Source of the DNA: an uncultured Actinomycetota bacterium
Lineage (GTDB): Bacteria; Actinomycetota; Actinomycetes; JAHEKZ01
NCBI GenBank assembly: GCA_963718235.1
Contig: CAVQYR010000002.1
Span: 544,001-608,000 of the forward strand
Length of the DNA stretch: 64,000 nt
Direction: 5' to 3'
Below, piece by piece: positions 4,200 through 9,995 of this stretch. Under the pieces are notes generated by a model. The model saw only the letters and a list, made by a program, of their open reading frames with translations. It searched no databases and was not told the origin of the DNA. Position numbers and translations under genes: made by a program. Within the stretch, counting starts at the first letter, position 1, and every line of letters begins with the position of its first letter.

Positions 4200-4286
4200 G
4201 CCCCTGGCGTGACGAGGACGAGTGCCCCACGGGCGCTGCAGGCACGGGGGGGCGATGGCGCGTCCCTCGCGCCGCTACCCTTCGGC

Positions 4287-4949
4287 GTGATGACTGACGA
4301 CACTCACGACACCCACGACGCTGACGGCGCTGCGGGCGACCCGGCCGACGAGAGCATCGAGCAGCGCACGGCTCGCTTCGAGCGCGACGCGCTGCCCTAC
4401 CTCGACCAGCTCTACGGAGCGGCCCTGCGGATGACGCGCAACCCGGCCGATGCCGAGGACCTCGTCCAGGAGACCTTCGCCAAGGCGTTCTCGGCCTTCC
4501 ACCAGTACCGCGACGGCACCAACCTCAAGGCCTGGCTCTACCGCATCCTGACGAACACGTTCATCAACACCTACCGCAAGAAGCAGCGGGAGCCCCAGCA
4601 GTCGATGGCCGAGGAGGTCGAGGACTGGCAGCTCGCCCGGGCCGCCGAGCACACGTCGGCAGGACTGCGCTCGGCGGAGGCGGAGGCCCTCGACCGGCTG
4701 CCGGACAGCGACATCAAGGATGCGCTGAACGAGCTCAGCGACGACTTCCGGCTCGCGGTCTACCTCGCCGACGTCGAGGGCTTCGCGTACAAGGAGATCG
4801 CCGACATCATGGGGACACCGATCGGCACGGTCATGTCCCGGCTGCATCGGGGGCGCAAGCAGCTGCGCACCCTTCTGGAGGACTACGCGATCGAGCGAGG
4901 GCTCATCCCCGCGACCACCGGCGGGGACCAGGAGGAGGAGGGGTCATGA
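4287..4949 (+). CDS. sigH: ECF sigma factor SigH/SigR (thiol-oxidative stress); an in-frame upstream GTG at 4209 may give a longer isoform
   Basis: [46 protein letters not shown] and [23 protein letters not shown]; followed by a ZAS anti-sigma gene. Confidence 0.95.
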
Positions 4950-5227
4950 GCTGCGGGAACCCGCACGCGGTCGACTGCTCGAAGGTGCTCGAGACCGTCT
5001 ACCTCTACCTCGACGGCGAGATCGACCACTCCGAGCTCGGGGTCATCCGAGAGCACCTCGACGAGTGTTCGCCGTGTCTTCGCGAGTACGGAATCGAACG
5101 CGAGGTCAAGCAGCTGGTGGCCCGTAGCTGCTGCGAGACGGCGCCGGAGTCGCTGCGGCACGCGGTGATCGCGCGGATCCGGGTGGTGCGCACCGAGATG
5201 ACCCAGGTGGAGTTCCGCGCCGACTGA
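4946..5227 (+). CDS. rshA: Zinc-binding anti-sigma factor RshA/RsrA
   Basis: HxxxCxxC motif (HLDECSPC); ATGA overlap with sigH. Confidence 0.93.
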
Positions 5228-5265: not shown

Positions 5266-5340
5266 TCAGGCGGCCGGCCGGTTACCGTGGTTGGCCTTCT
5301 TCTTCTTGCGGTCCTTGCGCTTGCGCGAGCTCTTGCTCAT
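5266..5340 (-). CDS. 50S ribosomal protein bL37 (24 aa, MSKSSRKRKDRKKKKANHGNRPAA); not in the ORF track
   Basis: Manual translation. Basic peptide with ANHGxRP closely resembles mycobacterial bL37; GGAG RBS upstream; sits next to rshA. Confidence 0.9.
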   Translation of the reverse strand: MSKSSRKRKDRKKKKANHGNRPAA

Positions 5341-5443: not shown

Positions 5444-6202
5444 TCAGCCGGCGATCCGGCGGTTGAGGGCATCGAGCACCGAGCGGGCTACCGCGTCGGC
5501 CTCGTCGCCTCGGATGACCGCGCTGCCACTGGTCGACTGTGGGCCGATCCGCGGCACGTTCACGACGAGCACGGTCAGGGCCACGCTGTGGATCCCGGCC
5601 TCGATCACCGTGACCGACTCGACCTCGGTCGGCAGCCCCAGCAGCGGCTCGAGGGCCGACAGGGTCGCCTGGGCCACGAGTCGATGACGGTAGGAGGCGG
5701 CTCCGGACCCTGACGCCGCGCCGTCGAAGGTCTCGTCGCCGAAGGCCAGTCGAACCACGGCCTCGGCCTCTGCGCCGGACGTGCGGACCGTCAGCGACGT
5801 GATTGCCGGCCGCACGGTCTCCTCCGAGTCAGCCTCGACGACGTCGTCGCGGACCGGCACCGGACCGGCCTCCTGAGACTCAGCCGCGAGGACGCTCGGT
5901 GCTGTCGGGGTCTGCGAGGTCGGCGCCTCGGCCGGGGGCCGGGTCGCCCCGTTGGGCGGGGTGGCGTCCTCCTCGCCGATCTGGACCACGCTCACGATCC
6001 GGTGGTCCAGATCGATGTCGTAGCGGGTCAGCGCCACCGACTGGACGTCGCGGACGAGCTGCTTGGCGGGCTTGCCCGGGGACGCCAGCACGTGGACCTC
6101 GGTCGGGACCGCTTTGGGGTCGGTGACCACACTGACCGCGCGGATCCCGGGGATCTGGCGCAGCGCGTCCTCCAGGGCGGGCAGCAGACGCAACGTGGGC
6201 AT
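5444..6202 (-). CDS. Conserved hypothetical two-domain protein next to the HD-GYP genes
   Basis: N-domain with EVHVLA..KQLVRDVQS..DLDHRIVSVVQ, a Pro/Ala linker, and an alpha/beta C-domain ending ARSVLDALNRR; coding-like GC3. Confidence 0.8.
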   Translation of the reverse strand: MPTLRLLPALEDALRQIPGIRAVSVVTDPKAVPTEVHVLASPGKPAKQLVRDVQSVALTRYDIDLDHRIVSVVQIGEEDATPPNGATRPPAEAPTSQTPTAPSVLAAESQEAGPVPVRDDVVEADSEETVRPAITSLTVRTSGAEAEAVVRLAFGDETFDGAASGSGAASYRHRLVAQATLSALEPLLGLPTEVESVTVIEAGIHSVALTVLVVNVPRIGPQSTSGSAVIRGDEADAVARSVLDALNRRIAG

Positions 6203-6256
6203 GAAGGTCAGTCTCTCTCGGGTATGGGTCACGGGGTTGCGCATCGGTCAGACAGG

Positions 6257-6673
6257 TCAGGGGTCGCTGGGCAGGACGGTGAGCCCGGCGACCAGGAGCC
6301 GACGGGGGGTGGGGTCGTAGGGAGCTTCGTCTCCAGCGTCACCCTCGTCGTAGGACGGCCCCTCGTCGAGGACGTCCTCGGTGGGTTCCTGGTCGAGGAT
6401 GTCCTCGTCACGAGCCTCGGCGCGGGCCTGTTCGAGGCCGAGCATCGCGGCCGGAACGGCCGTACGGGCGTGCTCGACGAGCCCTCGCACCGACTCCCGC
6501 TGGAGCCAGCGCAGCCGCCGGGCGGTGTCGGGGTCGAGGTGACCGCTGGCCACCGCCGCCGCCACCTCCTCGTCGAAGCGCTGGGTGGCGACGTCGTCAC
6601 GGACGTCCAGGAGACCGGCGACGAGGTCGCCGTAGGCGGCCGTCCTGGCCGAGCTGCGAGCCGTGTCGATCAC
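6257..6673 (-). CDS. Hypothetical protein with acidic C-terminal tail
   Basis: GTG at 6673 preceded by a GGAGG RBS; coding-like codon usage; same strand as the 5444 gene. Confidence 0.65.
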   Translation of the reverse strand: MIDTARSSARTAAYGDLVAGLLDVRDDVATQRFDEEVAAAVASGHLDPDTARRLRWLQRESVRGLVEHARTAVPAAMLGLEQARAEARDEDILDQEPTEDVLDEGPSYDEGDAGDEAPYDPTPRRLLVAGLTVLPSDP

Positions 6674-6810
6674 CGGATGTGCCTCCCCCCAACCGTCGCC
6701 CGCCCGCGCAGCGGGCACGCCGCGTGAGGACGAGGCTAGGGCAGCGAGATCGCCGCTGAGCCAGGGCCGGGTACAAGCCTGCGCCATTCGGGTTGGGGCT
6801 AGTGCTTGAT

Positions 6811-6839
6811 GACTATTTCTTATAGTCCAGAAGGACTAT
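6811..6839. promoter_or_regulatory. AT-rich overlapping palindromes (GACTAT / ATAGTC / GACTAT), candidate operator
   Basis: gactat(6811-16)-ttctt-atagtc(6822-27) and atagtcc(6822-28)-agaa-ggactat(6833-39) in a divergent intergenic region. Confidence 0.5.
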
Positions 6840-6944
6840 GTGCGCACGACGGTTCGGGATCGACCTGCCCGGTGTCTTGACGGCACCACCCGTCACACCC
6901 TTCACTTCCGTTCGGTGGCATGTCTGATTTATCCCAGGCAGCCC

Positions 6945-6976
6945 CGGCACAGCACGACGGCACAGCACGACGGCAC
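6945..6976 (+). repeat. 13-bp tandem repeat CGGCACAGCACGA x2.5
   Basis: Copies at 6945-6957 and 6958-6970, partial copy at 6971-6976. Confidence 0.85.
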
Positions 6977-6987
6977 TCACCACAACT

Positions 6988-7238
6988 GCACAGGGCGAAG
7001 CCAGGATCGGCAGCATTGGGGGTTCGACCCCGTCGTCCTCGTGACGACGGGCACGAGCTTTGTTTCATCCAGCGGAGCGAATCGCGCGCGAGCCAACCAG
7101 CGGGGCTCGTGACACTCCAACGGAGGTGATTCCCACCGATGAGCAAGATCGTGGCAGCTGTCGAGCGTGCCCTCGCCGCAGGCGCAGGGTGGGCCTGGAA
7201 CTGACCCCACAGCTGCCGATCCTGGTTTCGCCCTTTGC
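6988..7238 (+). ncRNA. Candidate structured leader RNA; a long-range stem encloses the small peptide ORF
   Basis: 6992-7014 pairs with 7212-7234 (22 Watson-Crick pairs plus one G.U on the + strand). Inner stems are 7029-7037/7043-7051 and 7052-7058/7105-7111. Confidence 0.6.
7139..7204 (+). CDS. Small 21-aa peptide MSKIVAAVERALAAGAGWAWN (candidate signalling or leader peptide); not in the ORF track
   Basis: GGAGGTGA Shine-Dalgarno at 7122-7129, ATG at 7139, TGA at 7202-7204; immediately upstream of the HD-GYP operon. Confidence 0.75.
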   Translation: MSKIVAAVERALAAGAGWAWN

Positions 7239-7260
7239 GCCTTCCCCAGGAGTGGAGCCG

Positions 7261-8715
7261 ATGCAGGCACTGCGCCCCGCGGCGCGCGGCTACATCGCGG
7301 TGGTCATCACCATGGCCGCCGTGGCTGTCGTCGTGTCGATGGCGGCCGCCCTCGGAGTCATCGACGTCGAGATTCTGCGCATCTCCGAGGTTGACGATTT
7401 TTGGCAAACGATCATCGTGCTCGCCCCCGTGTACGTCCTCGCCACCTCCACACCGTCGGCCATGGCGGTCCCGGTGGCCATGATGGCGAACGTCCCGGTG
7501 CTCTTCGCGGCCTACCTGATCGCCGGTCCGGCCGCCGCCGTCCTCGTCGCCGCGTCCGGGCTCCTCGCGTTCACCTCGGTCCCGTGGGTCAAGCGAGGTT
7601 TCAACACCGCCCAGTTCACCCTGATCGGCCTGGGCGCCGGCCTGGTCTACGTGATGCTCGACGGCCCCTTCGCCGAGGACTTCGCGGCGGCCAACTTCGG
7701 ACGGGACATCCTGGTTCCGGTCGTCGCCTCCAACGTCGCAGCGATGGTGCTGAACGGGCTCCTGCTCTTCGGCGTGCTCCGTACCGCCGAGGGACTGTCC
7801 TTCCGGTCCATGTGGCGCACCGTCATCGCCGGCTCGGCCGTGCCCTACCTCGGGTACGGGCTGTTCGGACTCCTCATGGCGGTGCTGTGGTCCGTCGGCA
7901 GCGGGTTCGGTGCGACTCTGGTGCTGCTTCCGCTGCTCATCGCCCGCTGGGCGTACCGGCAGTACGCCGAGCAGCAGCGGGCGTACGAGGCGACCATCGC
8001 CGCGATGGTGCAGGCGGTCGAGACCAAGGACCACTACACCCGTGGACACAGCGAGCGCGTGTCGCGAGCCGCAGTGATGATCGCCCGCGTCCGGGGCATG
8101 ACGGCGGACCGGGTGAACGCCCTGCGCTACGCCGGGATCCTGCACGACGTCGGCAAGCTGGGTGTGCCCACACGTTTGCTGCAGAAGACCGGCCCCCTGG
8201 CCGACGGTGAGTACGAGCGGATCAAGATGCACCCGGTGCACGGCACCGAGATGGTTCGTGGGATCACCTTCCTGGAAGAGGCGTACGAGGGGATCCTGCA
8301 CCACCACGAGCGCCTCGACGGTCTCGGCTACCCCAGCGGTCTGAAGGGCATGGACATCCCCGAGTTCGCCCGCGCCATCGCCGTCGCCGACGCCTTCGAC
8401 TCGATGACGTCGACCCGTTCGTACCGAGGGGCTCGCAGCGTCGAGAAGGCGCTGGAGGAGCTGGACCGCTGGAAGGGTACCCAGTTCGACCCGGCCATGG
8501 TCGACGCGCTCGTGACGGCATTGGAGCGCGAACCGTGGAAGACCACCGCGGTCGTCGTCGACACCGCTGACGGCGAGACGCCGGTCGCCGCGAGCTTCGA
8601 CCACGACGACCCGGGCGCCCCGATCCCACTTGGCAGCGACCAGGCCCTGGCTGCGGCCGCCGAGGAAGCCGAGAGCGCCCAGGTGTCGGCCCTGCGACGT
8701 CAGGACGACGCATGA
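7261..8715 (+). CDS. Membrane-bound HD-GYP c-di-GMP phosphodiesterase with multi-TM sensor (MASE9-like, inferred)
   Basis: About 7-8 TM segments with a KRGFN motif, then ETKDHYTRGHSERV, ILHDVGK, HHHERLDGLGYP and VADAFDSMTSTRSYR. RBS AGGAG/GGAG before ATG 7261. Position matches the Streptomyces HdgA/HdgB pair after sigR-rsrA (recalled). Confidence 0.93.
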   Translation: MQALRPAARGYIAVVITMAAVAVVVSMAAALGVIDVEILRISEVDDFWQTIIVLAPVYVLATSTPSAMAVPVAMMANVPVLFAAYLIAGPAAAVLVAASGLLAFTSVPWVKRGFNTAQFTLIGLGAGLVYVMLDGPFAEDFAAANFGRDILVPVVASNVAAMVLNGLLLFGVLRTAEGLSFRSMWRTVIAGSAVPYLGYGLFGLLMAVLWSVGSGFGATLVLLPLLIARWAYRQYAEQQRAYEATIAAMVQAVETKDHYTRGHSERVSRAAVMIARVRGMTADRVNALRYAGILHDVGKLGVPTRLLQKTGPLADGEYERIKMHPVHGTEMVRGITFLEEAYEGILHHHERLDGLGYPSGLKGMDIPEFARAIAVADAFDSMTSTRSYRGARSVEKALEELDRWKGTQFDPAMVDALVTALEREPWKTTAVVVDTADGETPVAASFDHDDPGAPIPLGSDQALAAAAEEAESAQVSALRRQDDA

Positions 8716-9995
8716 GGTCGCGCTGGTTCGACTCCTCGGCGGGCGCGACGCTCGTGGTGATCGGCGCGCTCCTGCTCGTGGCCGGTGCGGTGATGTCGAC
8801 GAGCGTCCAGGGTCTCGTCCAACCGATGATCGCCCTGGCCTTCGGCGGCTTCGTGGCGGTCGGTGAGCTGATCCGGATCAACCTGCCGGGAGACCGGGTG
8901 ACCGCTCCGCTGGGCGCGGCGGGTGCTCTGGGCTACGCCCTCCTGGAGAGCTTCGACGGGGTCCCGACGCAGTACGACGCCATGCAGGTGATCGCCGTGG
9001 TTGCGGTGGGCATGCTCGTCGGCACCGTGCCGCACGTGGCGGTGGGCCAGCCTCCCCGGCTCGAGGCGATGGCCCGCCGGATCCTCACGACGGCCTTCGC
9101 CGCGGCCATCTTCCGGCCGCTGTACACCTCCGGTGCCCTCGACGGGCTCGAGACGCCGGACTGGCAGCTGCCGGCGTTCATGCTCGTCGTCGTCGCGTGC
9201 AGCGGTTTCGTCGACGCCCTGCTCGCGGCACTGATCCGCAGCAGCCGCGAGCGGCTTCCGTTCCTCGCCGCACTTCGGGACGAGGGGCGCGCCTTCGTGG
9301 GGATCGGCTCGGTCATCGGTGCCACCGGCGTCCTGATCGCGCTGGCCGCCGAGGTCATGGGCTACTGGGCGCTGCCCATCTTCGCGATCCCGCTGCTCAT
9401 CGCCCAGTTCTCCTTCCGCCGGTACGCAGCGATCCGAGCCACCTACACCCAGACGATCCGGGCACTGTCCCGCGTCACCGAGGTGGGTGGGTACACCGAG
9501 ACCGGGCATGCCCGCCGGGTCAGCCAGCTCGCCCTGGCGGTGGGGCGCGAGATGGGGCTGTCGGAGTCTGCCCTGATCGACCTGGAGTACAGCGCCCTCA
9601 TGCACGACATCGGCCAGCTGTCGTTGTCCGACCCGATCCCCGGCGGAGCGACGGTCATGGTCGCGCCGGACGAGCAGCGCCGGATCGCCGGCCTGGGTGC
9701 CGAGGTCATCCGCAAGACGGGGGTCCTGGACCGGGTCGCGGTGATCGTCGAGTGCCAGAGCGAGCCCTACCGCCGCCCAGGACAGCCCCTGGACGCCGGG
9801 ATCCCGCTGGCGAGTCGGATCATCCGGGCGGTCAACGCCTACGACGACCGGGTCGGCGGGTTGAACGACCTCGAGCACCAGCTTGCCGCGCTCGAGCAGC
9901 TGCGGCTGGGCATGGCCTACGACTACGACCCACGGGTCGTGGAGACCCTGAGCCGGGTCGTGGAGCGCAACTCCCGGCTCGGCGTCCAGCCCTAG
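8712..9995 (+). CDS. Second membrane-bound HD-GYP-like protein, catalytically degenerate
   Basis: Multi-TM N-terminus. TGHARRV and LMHDIGQ are retained, but HHE..DGxGYP is replaced by CQSEPYRRPG. ATGA coupling to the first HD-GYP gene. Confidence 0.88.
   Translation: MRSRWFDSSAGATLVVIGALLLVAGAVMSTSVQGLVQPMIALAFGGFVAVGELIRINLPGDRVTAPLGAAGALGYALLESFDGVPTQYDAMQVIAVVAVGMLVGTVPHVAVGQPPRLEAMARRILTTAFAAAIFRPLYTSGALDGLETPDWQLPAFMLVVVACSGFVDALLAALIRSSRERLPFLAALRDEGRAFVGIGSVIGATGVLIALAAEVMGYWALPIFAIPLLIAQFSFRRYAAIRATYTQTIRALSRVTEVGGYTETGHARRVSQLALAVGREMGLSESALIDLEYSALMHDIGQLSLSDPIPGGATVMVAPDEQRRIAGLGAEVIRKTGVLDRVAVIVECQSEPYRRPGQPLDAGIPLASRIIRAVNAYDDRVGGLNDLEHQLAALEQLRLGMAYDYDPRVVETLSRVVERNSRLGVQP

Follow-up and report, generated by a model that had tools for sequence, protein, structure and literature searches.

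A long-range helix encloses a short open reading frame in a conserved leader RNA upstream of an HD-GYP operon in Actinobacteria

We analysed a window of 64,000 nucleotides (nt) from an uncultured Actinomycetota bacterium (GenBank assembly GCA_963718235.1, contig CAVQYR010000002.1, positions 544,001 to 608,000 of the forward strand; all coordinates below are those of the window), concentrating on positions 6988-7238, where an initial annotation had proposed a long-range RNA stem bracketing a peptide gene. On the + strand this region holds a short open reading frame (sORF; 7139-7204) of 21 amino acids (aa), MSKIVAAVERALAAGAGWAWN, with the ribosome site GGAGGUGA upstream. Two genes follow on the same strand, the first encoding a 484-aa membrane phosphodiesterase of the HD-GYP type (7261-8715; Pfam HD_5, E = 1.9e-37) and the second a 427-aa membrane protein with a degenerate HD-GYP domain (8712-9995; Pfam HD_5, E = 1.5e-08). 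We name these genes hdgA and hdgB after the same tandem pair in Streptomyces, which comprises a 6TM-HD-GYP and a 6TM-degenerate HD-GYP protein (TM, transmembrane) and the function of which is reportedly still not settled (PMC6205966). The two sequences that flank the sORF almost certainly pair in the + strand transcript as a helix of ~28-34 base pairs (bp), here termed P1, that closes a conserved, single-copy leader RNA of ~220-300 nt. As judged from comparison of sequences, P1 is the outer part of a larger, previously undescribed leader conserved across many Actinobacteria. The initial annotation was therefore correct about the helix and missed the larger conserved RNA inside it, with its AGCGGAGCGGAU box, its covarying hairpin P3 and its probable anti-Shine-Dalgarno strand.

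Both direct reading and a search of the window identified 6992-7014 (AGGGCGAAGCCAGGATCGGCAGC) as the reverse complement of 7212-7234 with a single mismatch, and none of 100 shuffled windows gave two matches of this type, confirming that this 23-nt inverted repeat is real. The mismatch sets G7000 opposite T7226, which amounts to a G.U pair in RNA of the + strand but to C.A in that of the - strand, as had been read before. An inverted-repeat search extended the repeat to 6988-7021 and 7205-7238 (34 nt each, 88% complementary, 183 nt spacing), and the 3' arm begins directly after the sORF stop codon (7202-7204), so that the earlier description of pairing beyond the core and up to the stop also holds. 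Taking repeat search and covariation together, we delimit a G-rich 5' arm at 6987-7021 (+) with its core at 6992-7014 and a C-rich 3' arm at 7205-7239 (+) with its core at 7212-7234; the inner extension at 7017-7021 (+) is particular to the lineage of the window. When 6985-7241 was folded, the minimum free energy (MFE) of the + strand was -146.9 kcal/mol, compared with -106.6 +/- 5.2 kcal/mol for shuffled sequences (z = -7.7), and that of the - strand was -135.2 kcal/mol (z = -5.6). The possibility that the arms belong to a miniature inverted-repeat transposable element (MITE) or a repetitive extragenic palindromic (REP) family, raised alongside the original proposal, was rejected because each arm matched only the other across the genome's own 3.17-Mb assembly, in which the pair occurs once.

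Relatives were gathered by a DNA search of 60 related genomes, which recovered the region in 18 of 19 same-family genomes and in one other family, and by a motif scan of 185,579 species' genomes, which returned 103 stretches. Of these, 80 were taken into the analysis and 12 of the 80 were then dropped as chance matches in non-actinobacterial records, carrying neither hdgA nor the arms. A Nocardia sp. locus with a core-box-like string and without the long helix, such an sORF or hdgA was also dropped, being probably a chance or unrelated match. The retained loci come from Actinomycetota metagenome-assembled genomes (MAGs), with record titles including Sporichthyaceae, Nanopelagicales, Frankiaceae, Motilibacteraceae and Mycobacteriales. 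Covariation was counted on an alignment of 75 distinct sequences with the structure supplied beforehand, and the arms of relatives were defined by an ungapped diagonal search.

In this alignment, 19 of the 28 pairs of P1 had changed on both sides with 88.4% of cells paired, and the hairpin P3 behaved likewise (6 of 8 pairs changed on both sides, 94.3% of cells paired). Sliding the partner columns of P1 by 1-3 positions lowered pairing to 34-46%, and no column shuffle matched the observed pairing values (0/500, a count that is not a probability because the sequences are related). The arms are thus present and covary in the relatives, the first property on which the original proposal had been made to depend. 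The strand of selection can be read from the non-canonical cells, since an A.C cell is a G.U pair on the opposite strand: the 21 core pairs of P1 held 71 G.U cells, spread over seven columns, against 6 A.C cells, and P3 held 35 against 2. Across all 28 pairs of P1 the counts were 107 and 37, the seven outer columns including register errors in a few rows. The excess of G.U over A.C, together with the covariation, is strong evidence that selection acts on the + strand RNA and against any explanation at the level of DNA, in agreement with what the initial annotation had argued from its single G.U pair.

Length is conserved along with pairing. Among 68 distinct arm pairs, P1 had a median of 31 positions, of which 28.5 were paired and 2 mismatched, and at least 22 positions were paired in 67 of the 68. 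The inner dodecamer GGGAUCGGCAGC, near-constant in the main alignment, changes together with its partner in 16 genomes that are more distantly related, and in these deep lineages the helix is kept at 24-34 bp (15 bp in one), followed every time by the sORF and hdgA. No comparable long-range stem was found upstream of hdgA in 13 genomes without the element, where the best stem score was at most 31, compared with 40-65 in carriers, despite the larger search space.

To describe the distribution of the element, a covariance model of its core was run over 151 genomes sampled across the class (one of them unpublished, and two unpublished in the corresponding hdgA tally). Exactly one copy was found in 54 genomes, in one of which the copy is present on two contigs; these carriers span 18 family codes and 35 of 103 genera and include five genomes of 1.2-1.7 Mb. 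HdgA homologs (E <= 1e-40) were detected in 75 of the 151 genomes, and all 54 element carriers are among them. At the level of loci, 126 of 133 are followed on the same strand by an HdgA homolog, which is all 126 of those with any HdgA match, the other seven being mostly cut by contig ends and including the Nocardia locus. The core model found no element in two hdgA-bearing families with large genomes (0/6 in family f3, 0/5 in family f29; these codes are not equated with Streptomyces).

The same loci bear on whether the arms could be a feature of DNA, whether as an inverton, as a repeat of the MITE or REP type, or as paired operators recognised by a DNA-binding protein. Invertons are segments flanked by inverted repeats, which repeats of 23-34 bp around ~190 bp resemble, and recombination or a co-evolving protein could in principle maintain the similarity of the arms. 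Against this, in all 126 loci with an HdgA match the core box points the same way as hdgA and no flipped copy was seen, which, together with the G.U asymmetry, led us to reject an inverton. Nor is such an asymmetry expected of a DNA repeat; moreover, the arms are unique in their genome, and a covarying hairpin and the signature of a coding frame lie between them on one and the same strand. We regard a DNA-level origin as the least likely of the explanations considered here, and a very remote one.

The sORF that P1 encloses is, by the criteria of comparative sequence analysis, a translated gene. Taking the start column of the alignment as the reference, an open reading frame was present in 73 of 75 sequences (68 with ATG, five with TTG), with lengths of 13, 20, 21 or 25 codons and 54 distinct peptides whose consensus is roughly M-K/S-K-I-V-S/A-A-V-E-x-F-L-x-x-G-A-x-W-x-W. 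Synonymous changes made up 34.4% of differing codons in frame, compared with 10.5% and 13.4% in the other two frames. Tryptophan is the last or penultimate residue in all 73 peptides. Attenuators of the trp/tnaC type couple regulatory codons or a stalling peptide to alternative terminator and antiterminator hairpins or to a single release factor. With regard to these features, the sORFs carry a conserved Trp beside the stop, use all three stop codons (TAG 26, TAA 25, TGA 22) and are not followed by a conserved U-tract terminator. No Pfam or NCBIfam family matched the peptide, and none of nine sORF peptides was present in a collection of ~15 billion predicted proteins (0/9); therefore, the gene is not being called. 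Two loci in records titled as Bifidobacterium breve MAGs have the same element and the same 13-aa sORF (MFKMLLEPGVSWR) as four of the loci from 1.2-1.7-Mb genomes, and these titles look like binning or labelling errors.

The initial annotation had offered, as one alternative, a fold-back switch like those of type I toxin mRNAs, in which, as in hok, pairing between the 5' and 3' ends would hold a peptide mRNA inert until its 3' end is processed. The element shares with hok/Sok mRNAs a small open reading frame bracketed by a long 5'-3' helix, and local sequestration of the Shine-Dalgarno (SD) sequence is possible. Toxins of the hok kind are hydrophobic, membrane-spanning and ~25-60 aa long, unlike the peptides here, which at 13-25 aa with K, E and R residues are charged and too short to span a membrane. 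The element is also chromosomal, present once per genome and fixed upstream of hdgA across 18 family codes, its SD and start codon lie outside P1, whereas in such toxin mRNAs long-range pairing occludes the translation start and an antisense RNA takes part, and a search of the window's own genome with the arms showed no second copy or antisense partner. We consequently reject a hok-like fold-back, which we consider very unlikely.

Read 5' to 3', the element consists of a promoter-like box (in some families), an ACAACUG box, the 5' arm of P1, a variable stretch, a C/U-rich tract, the AGCGGAGCGGAU box and P3, continuing with the SD, the sORF, the 3' arm of P1, a CUUCCCC box, the hdgA SD and hdgA. 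The ACAACUG box lies at the 5' foot of the helix (6982-6988, +), where the alignment shows no variation at A8, A10, A11 and T13 and conservation of at least 90% at C9 and C12. The variable stretch accounts for a distance between 5' arm and core box of 21 to ~95 nt in relatives, and in the window it folds into a hairpin, P2 (7024-7056, +; inverted repeat and MFE), that is absent or different elsewhere. An inner stem at 7029-7051 described in the initial annotation is accordingly present in the window, and falls in a stretch that varies in length and sequence among relatives. Within P2, 7038-7057 resembles a terminator hairpin with a T-rich tail (CTTTGTTTCA; one found, compared with 0.2 in shuffled sequences), and could be either a site of premature termination or a chance occurrence.

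The core box itself (7071-7082, +) is single-stranded and reads AGCGGAGCGAAU here and AGCGGAGCGGAU in nearly all relatives. In the numbering of the first aligned sequence, A97-G105, A107 and T108 are invariant, and the box is retained in the deep lineages (loci L170-L185). P3 follows at 7085-7113 (+), formed by 7087-7094 with 7104-7111 and by G7085 with C7113, with A7112 bulged and a third AGCGG in the loop (7099-7103); RNAalifold predicted it unaided from the core sub-alignment, with 10 pairs of which seven were compensatory. A second inner stem that had been described earlier, 7052-7058 with 7105-7111, is a perfect 7-bp complement in the window, but it is unconserved and, by using the 3' strand of P3, competes with that covarying hairpin.

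Directly 5' of the core box, the C/U-rich tract (7063-7070, +) probably acts as an anti-SD strand, pairing with the sORF SD GGAGGUGA (7122-7129, +) in a helix, P4, that would close the domain of box and P3. We infer P4 because, in 61 of 75 sequences, the 8-mer adjacent to AGCGG has an unbroken run of at least five bases complementary to the 18 nt that immediately precede the start codon; for control 8-mers located 12 and 24 nt farther upstream, the same holds in 22 and 31 of 75. Shuffle z-scores for this pairing are weak (mean -0.6) because both strands are of low complexity, and P4 is less certain than P1 or P3. In the window, the MFE structure pairs the sORF SD, so that, with the complementarity among relatives, the earlier view that the inner stems leave the ribosome-binding site unpaired is not supported. 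Two further pairings, of AGCGG with a CCGCU of the sORF and of a GUCGAGC in the open reading frame with P3, were dropped since, on inspection by eye, the partners vary with codon choice. In eight loci, a CCGAUCG box precedes the core box; it is limited to the clade with sORFs beginning MKKIVSAVEQ and resembles the start of the 3' arm of P1. Because of this mimicry, the 5' arm could in that clade pair first with CCGAUCG as a co-transcriptional alternative fold.

This interior raises the possibility that P1 is never cut and serves as a rigid clamp, insulating and pre-organising a riboswitch-like or protein-binding sensor composed of the anti-SD, the AGCGGAGCGGAU box and P3. A ligand or an RNA-binding protein would then stabilise or open the anti-SD:SD helix and so switch translation of the sORF, and c-di-GMP (cyclic diguanylate) or a related nucleotide is a plausible ligand given the HD-GYP operon. 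The ~40 invariant nucleotides of the element lie in single-stranded junctions and a loop between covarying helices, as would be expected of such a sensor, and the SD complementarity of the tract beside the box, the strict linkage to hdgA in all carriers and loci with a match, and the retention of the element in genomes of 1.2-1.7 Mb point the same way. GGDEF cyclases are also encoded by these organisms, with 15 matches in the genome of the window and 3-6 in each of four small carrier genomes. Like the GEMM-I and c-di-GMP-II riboswitches, which lie upstream of genes for c-di-GMP turnover, the element precedes a gene for a c-di-GMP phosphodiesterase as a conserved, structured leader in which helices that covary accompany invariant junctions rich in purines. 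Unlike them, it shows no similarity to their models and has a translated open reading frame inside its closing helix; we know of no precedent for an entire translated frame within such a helix. A search of positions 6000-8000 against Rfam 15 (E up to 10) gave three unrelated sub-threshold matches, none of them on 6988-7238, and a search of the loci of ten relatives (E up to 1) gave one unrelated match, so that no known family, the c-di-GMP classes included, was recovered, in line with the initial annotation, which had matched the stem to no riboswitch consensus. In addition, the anti-SD signal is modest, and a few base pairs suffice to close a stem, which leaves at least 22 in nearly every arm pair unaccounted for. 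On balance, an uncut clamp around a sensor is conceivable and somewhat unlikely.

The reading that we favour, although only tentatively, is that P1 is a helix of the RNase III type for processing and stability that releases a discrete sORF RNA; the mechanism of the element as a whole is inferred. Once the 3' arm has been transcribed, P1 would fold into an almost perfect duplex at least two helical turns long and would act as a double-strand-specific element for both processing and stability, both strands of which RNase III would cut. Such a cut would separate the sORF-leader module from the hdgAB message. The module would persist as a separate RNA of ~200-240 nt, its ends paired and thereby resistant to exonucleases, and the message would acquire a 5' end shortly before its CUUCCCC-AGGAG ribosome site. 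Because cleavage in P1 would sever the two RNAs, peptide and enzyme could be produced at very different levels from a single promoter, with the inner domain (anti-SD, AGCGG box and P3) gating translation of the sORF separately.

Several observations are consistent with this proposal. Enzymes of the RNase III type require long double-stranded RNA of about 20-22 bp or more, and the length at which P1 is kept, which far exceeds what a closing stem needs, fits a double-strand-specific enzyme. The genome of the window also encodes an RNase III (PF14622, 142.5 bits, in an open frame of 304 aa). In most sequences, 0-26 nt separate the sORF stop codon from the inner end of the helix, and a ribosome terminating there should not, given its footprint, melt the core of P1, which argues for a static duplex rather than a switch opened by ribosomes. 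RNase III processing helices built from distant flanks are familiar from rRNA precursor stems, phage T7 early mRNA sites and the rnc and pnp leaders, and P1 resembles them in being a near-perfect duplex of at least two turns whose flanks lie ~200 nt apart and bracket an RNA in a host that encodes the enzyme. It differs from them in that the bracketed RNA is a micropeptide mRNA with a conserved non-coding domain, that most lineages conserve the inner half of P1 in sequence and that cleavage is predicted. The earlier suggestion of an RNase III-type stem that uncouples an abundant peptide mRNA from the phosphodiesterase mRNA thus survives as the best single reading, with a predicted cleavage step.

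Contigs from RNA libraries provide a weak hint in the same direction. Three freshwater metatranscriptome studies each yielded one contig, of 185, 177 and 187 nt and 98-99% identical to the window, spanning 7022-7205, 7030-7205 and 7018-7203, that is, the interior of P1 only and with no loose ends. As read coverage tapers toward the ends of short RNAs, these contigs fit a discrete RNA of ~200-240 nt with its ends in P1. They show neither transcript ends, strand nor level, may derive from DNA in RNA libraries, and could represent a single sampling campaign rather than three; a further run (X1) is probably DNA, with adaptor-like ends. The gap in RNA-run coverage over hdgA and the upstream leader is no evidence of low expression.

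Other features of the element weigh against generic processing. The cleavage site in P1, the transcript ends and the dependence on rnc are all putative, and the RNA contigs lack the inner halves of the arms, which should remain attached after a simple cut in the middle of the helix. The inner 12 bp of P1 (GGGAUCGGCAGC) are conserved in sequence beyond the needs of pairing in most lineages and two 1x1 mismatches recur (C.C in 31 of 75 sequences, C.U or U.C in 31 of 75), which suggests recognition more specific than that of generic double-stranded RNA. The ~40 invariant nucleotides are likewise more typical of a riboswitch or a ribonucleoprotein (RNP) site than of a processing stem. Finally, of 83 distinct 5' arms, 82 hold more G than C, and the 3' arms are C-rich (median C 0.44, G 0.24), a skew that could mean that a single-stranded state of an arm matters, though it is also expected from compensatory change through G.U intermediates. 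Sequence conservation, mismatches, invariant nucleotides and skew would all suit a sensor RNA or RNP site clamped by P1, and equally a structure concealing a C-rich site at which Rho loads.

The same skew underlies a third possibility at the RNA level, in which the C-rich 3' arm and the adjoining CUUCCCC box form a putative loading site for Rho that the G-rich 5' arm hides. Pairing in P1 would permit transcription into hdgA, and occupation or removal of the 5' arm would lead to premature termination. Rho-controlled leaders such as those of mgtA and corA are an established kind, and no intrinsic terminator was found between the sORF and hdgA, which suits such a scheme. The ratio of C to G, however, exceeds 2 in only 19 of 83 cases when the 25 nt after the arm are counted, compensatory change via G.U would preserve the skew anyway, and no competitor for the 5' arm is conserved across clades, CCGAUCG being seen by eye in one clade only. 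We therefore consider control by Rho doubtful at best. The CUUCCCC box (7241-7247) is followed by the hdgA SD, AGGAG, the two together occupying 7241-7252 (+), and similar boxes follow the 3' arm in many families, including the distant ones, when inspected by eye; the box could be a standby site, a local mask of the SD or part of a Rho site. Cleavage of P1, its use as a clamp and its masking of a Rho site are not mutually exclusive.

Structured leaders, upstream open reading frames and RNase III helices are each of a known kind. The combination seen here, in which a helix of at least 25 bp surrounds an invariant purine box as well as a translated gene for a micropeptide and holds a fixed place before an HD-GYP operon, was not found described, and a literature search based on result lists rather than full texts returned no account of this leader or of its sORF. 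Structured RNAs of ~200-500 nt with domain-closing helices and a translated frame of ~20-45 aa include Staphylococcus RNAIII/hld and SgrS/SgrT. The element is similar to these in being a highly structured RNA that also carries a translated frame, and differs in that they stand alone and act in trans, whereas it is the cis leader of an operon. A bolder interpretation, which we hold to be improbable but worth stating, is that the element represents a new class of regulatory RNA, namely a riboswitch whose AGCGG-box/P3 domain would sense c-di-GMP or a related nucleotide, or else an RNP switch. Either would be excised from the hdgAB leader at P1 and persist as an abundant, dual-function RNA encoding the conserved micropeptide. 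In this view, the Trp-terminated micropeptide is perhaps a partner of the membrane HD-GYP enzyme, and the RNA would be common among Actinobacteria of fresh water and soil, those with streamlined genomes among them.

Both the RNA motif and the micropeptide were previously unannotated. About one-third of the sampled genomes of the class carry the element, among them genomes of 1.2-1.7 Mb in which non-essential DNA is scarce, and the HD-GYP pair that it precedes is the only one that these organisms conserve widely. Should P1 prove to be a processing site, the locus would be a clean natural example of one promoter supplying a stable RNA for a micropeptide together with an mRNA for an enzyme at low level; should the inner domain prove to bind a ligand, the element would be a new riboswitch candidate linked to the turnover of a second messenger.

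Within the operon, the start of hdgB overlaps the stop of hdgA in an ATGA-type arrangement (8712-8715), which suggests that the two are translationally coupled. Upstream of the leader, a promoter-like box, CTTGACG-N11-GTCACACCCTTCACTTCCGT (6876-6911, +), is a candidate promoter or operator. The box contains the inverted repeat TGAC-N10-GTCA, and a match to its pattern precedes the 5' arm by 66-150 nt in 27 of 76 loci (one family, f1, and some others). A scan of 6700-7400 with the sigma-70 consensus identified no promoter, and the SigH/R-type, ECF41 (extracytoplasmic function 41) and BldD-box motifs, compared by eye, did not fit the conserved box. Between this box and the helix, the 13-nt unit CGGCACAGCACGA is perfectly duplicated in tandem (6945-6970), an arrangement not seen in relatives. 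Farther upstream, a domain search identified an ECF sigma factor and a zf-HC2 anti-sigma factor at 4209-5227, and a gene for the 24-aa ribosomal protein bL37, MSKSSRKRKDRKKKKANHGNRPAA, lies at 5266-5340 on the - strand (NCBIfam model, E = 3.1e-09).

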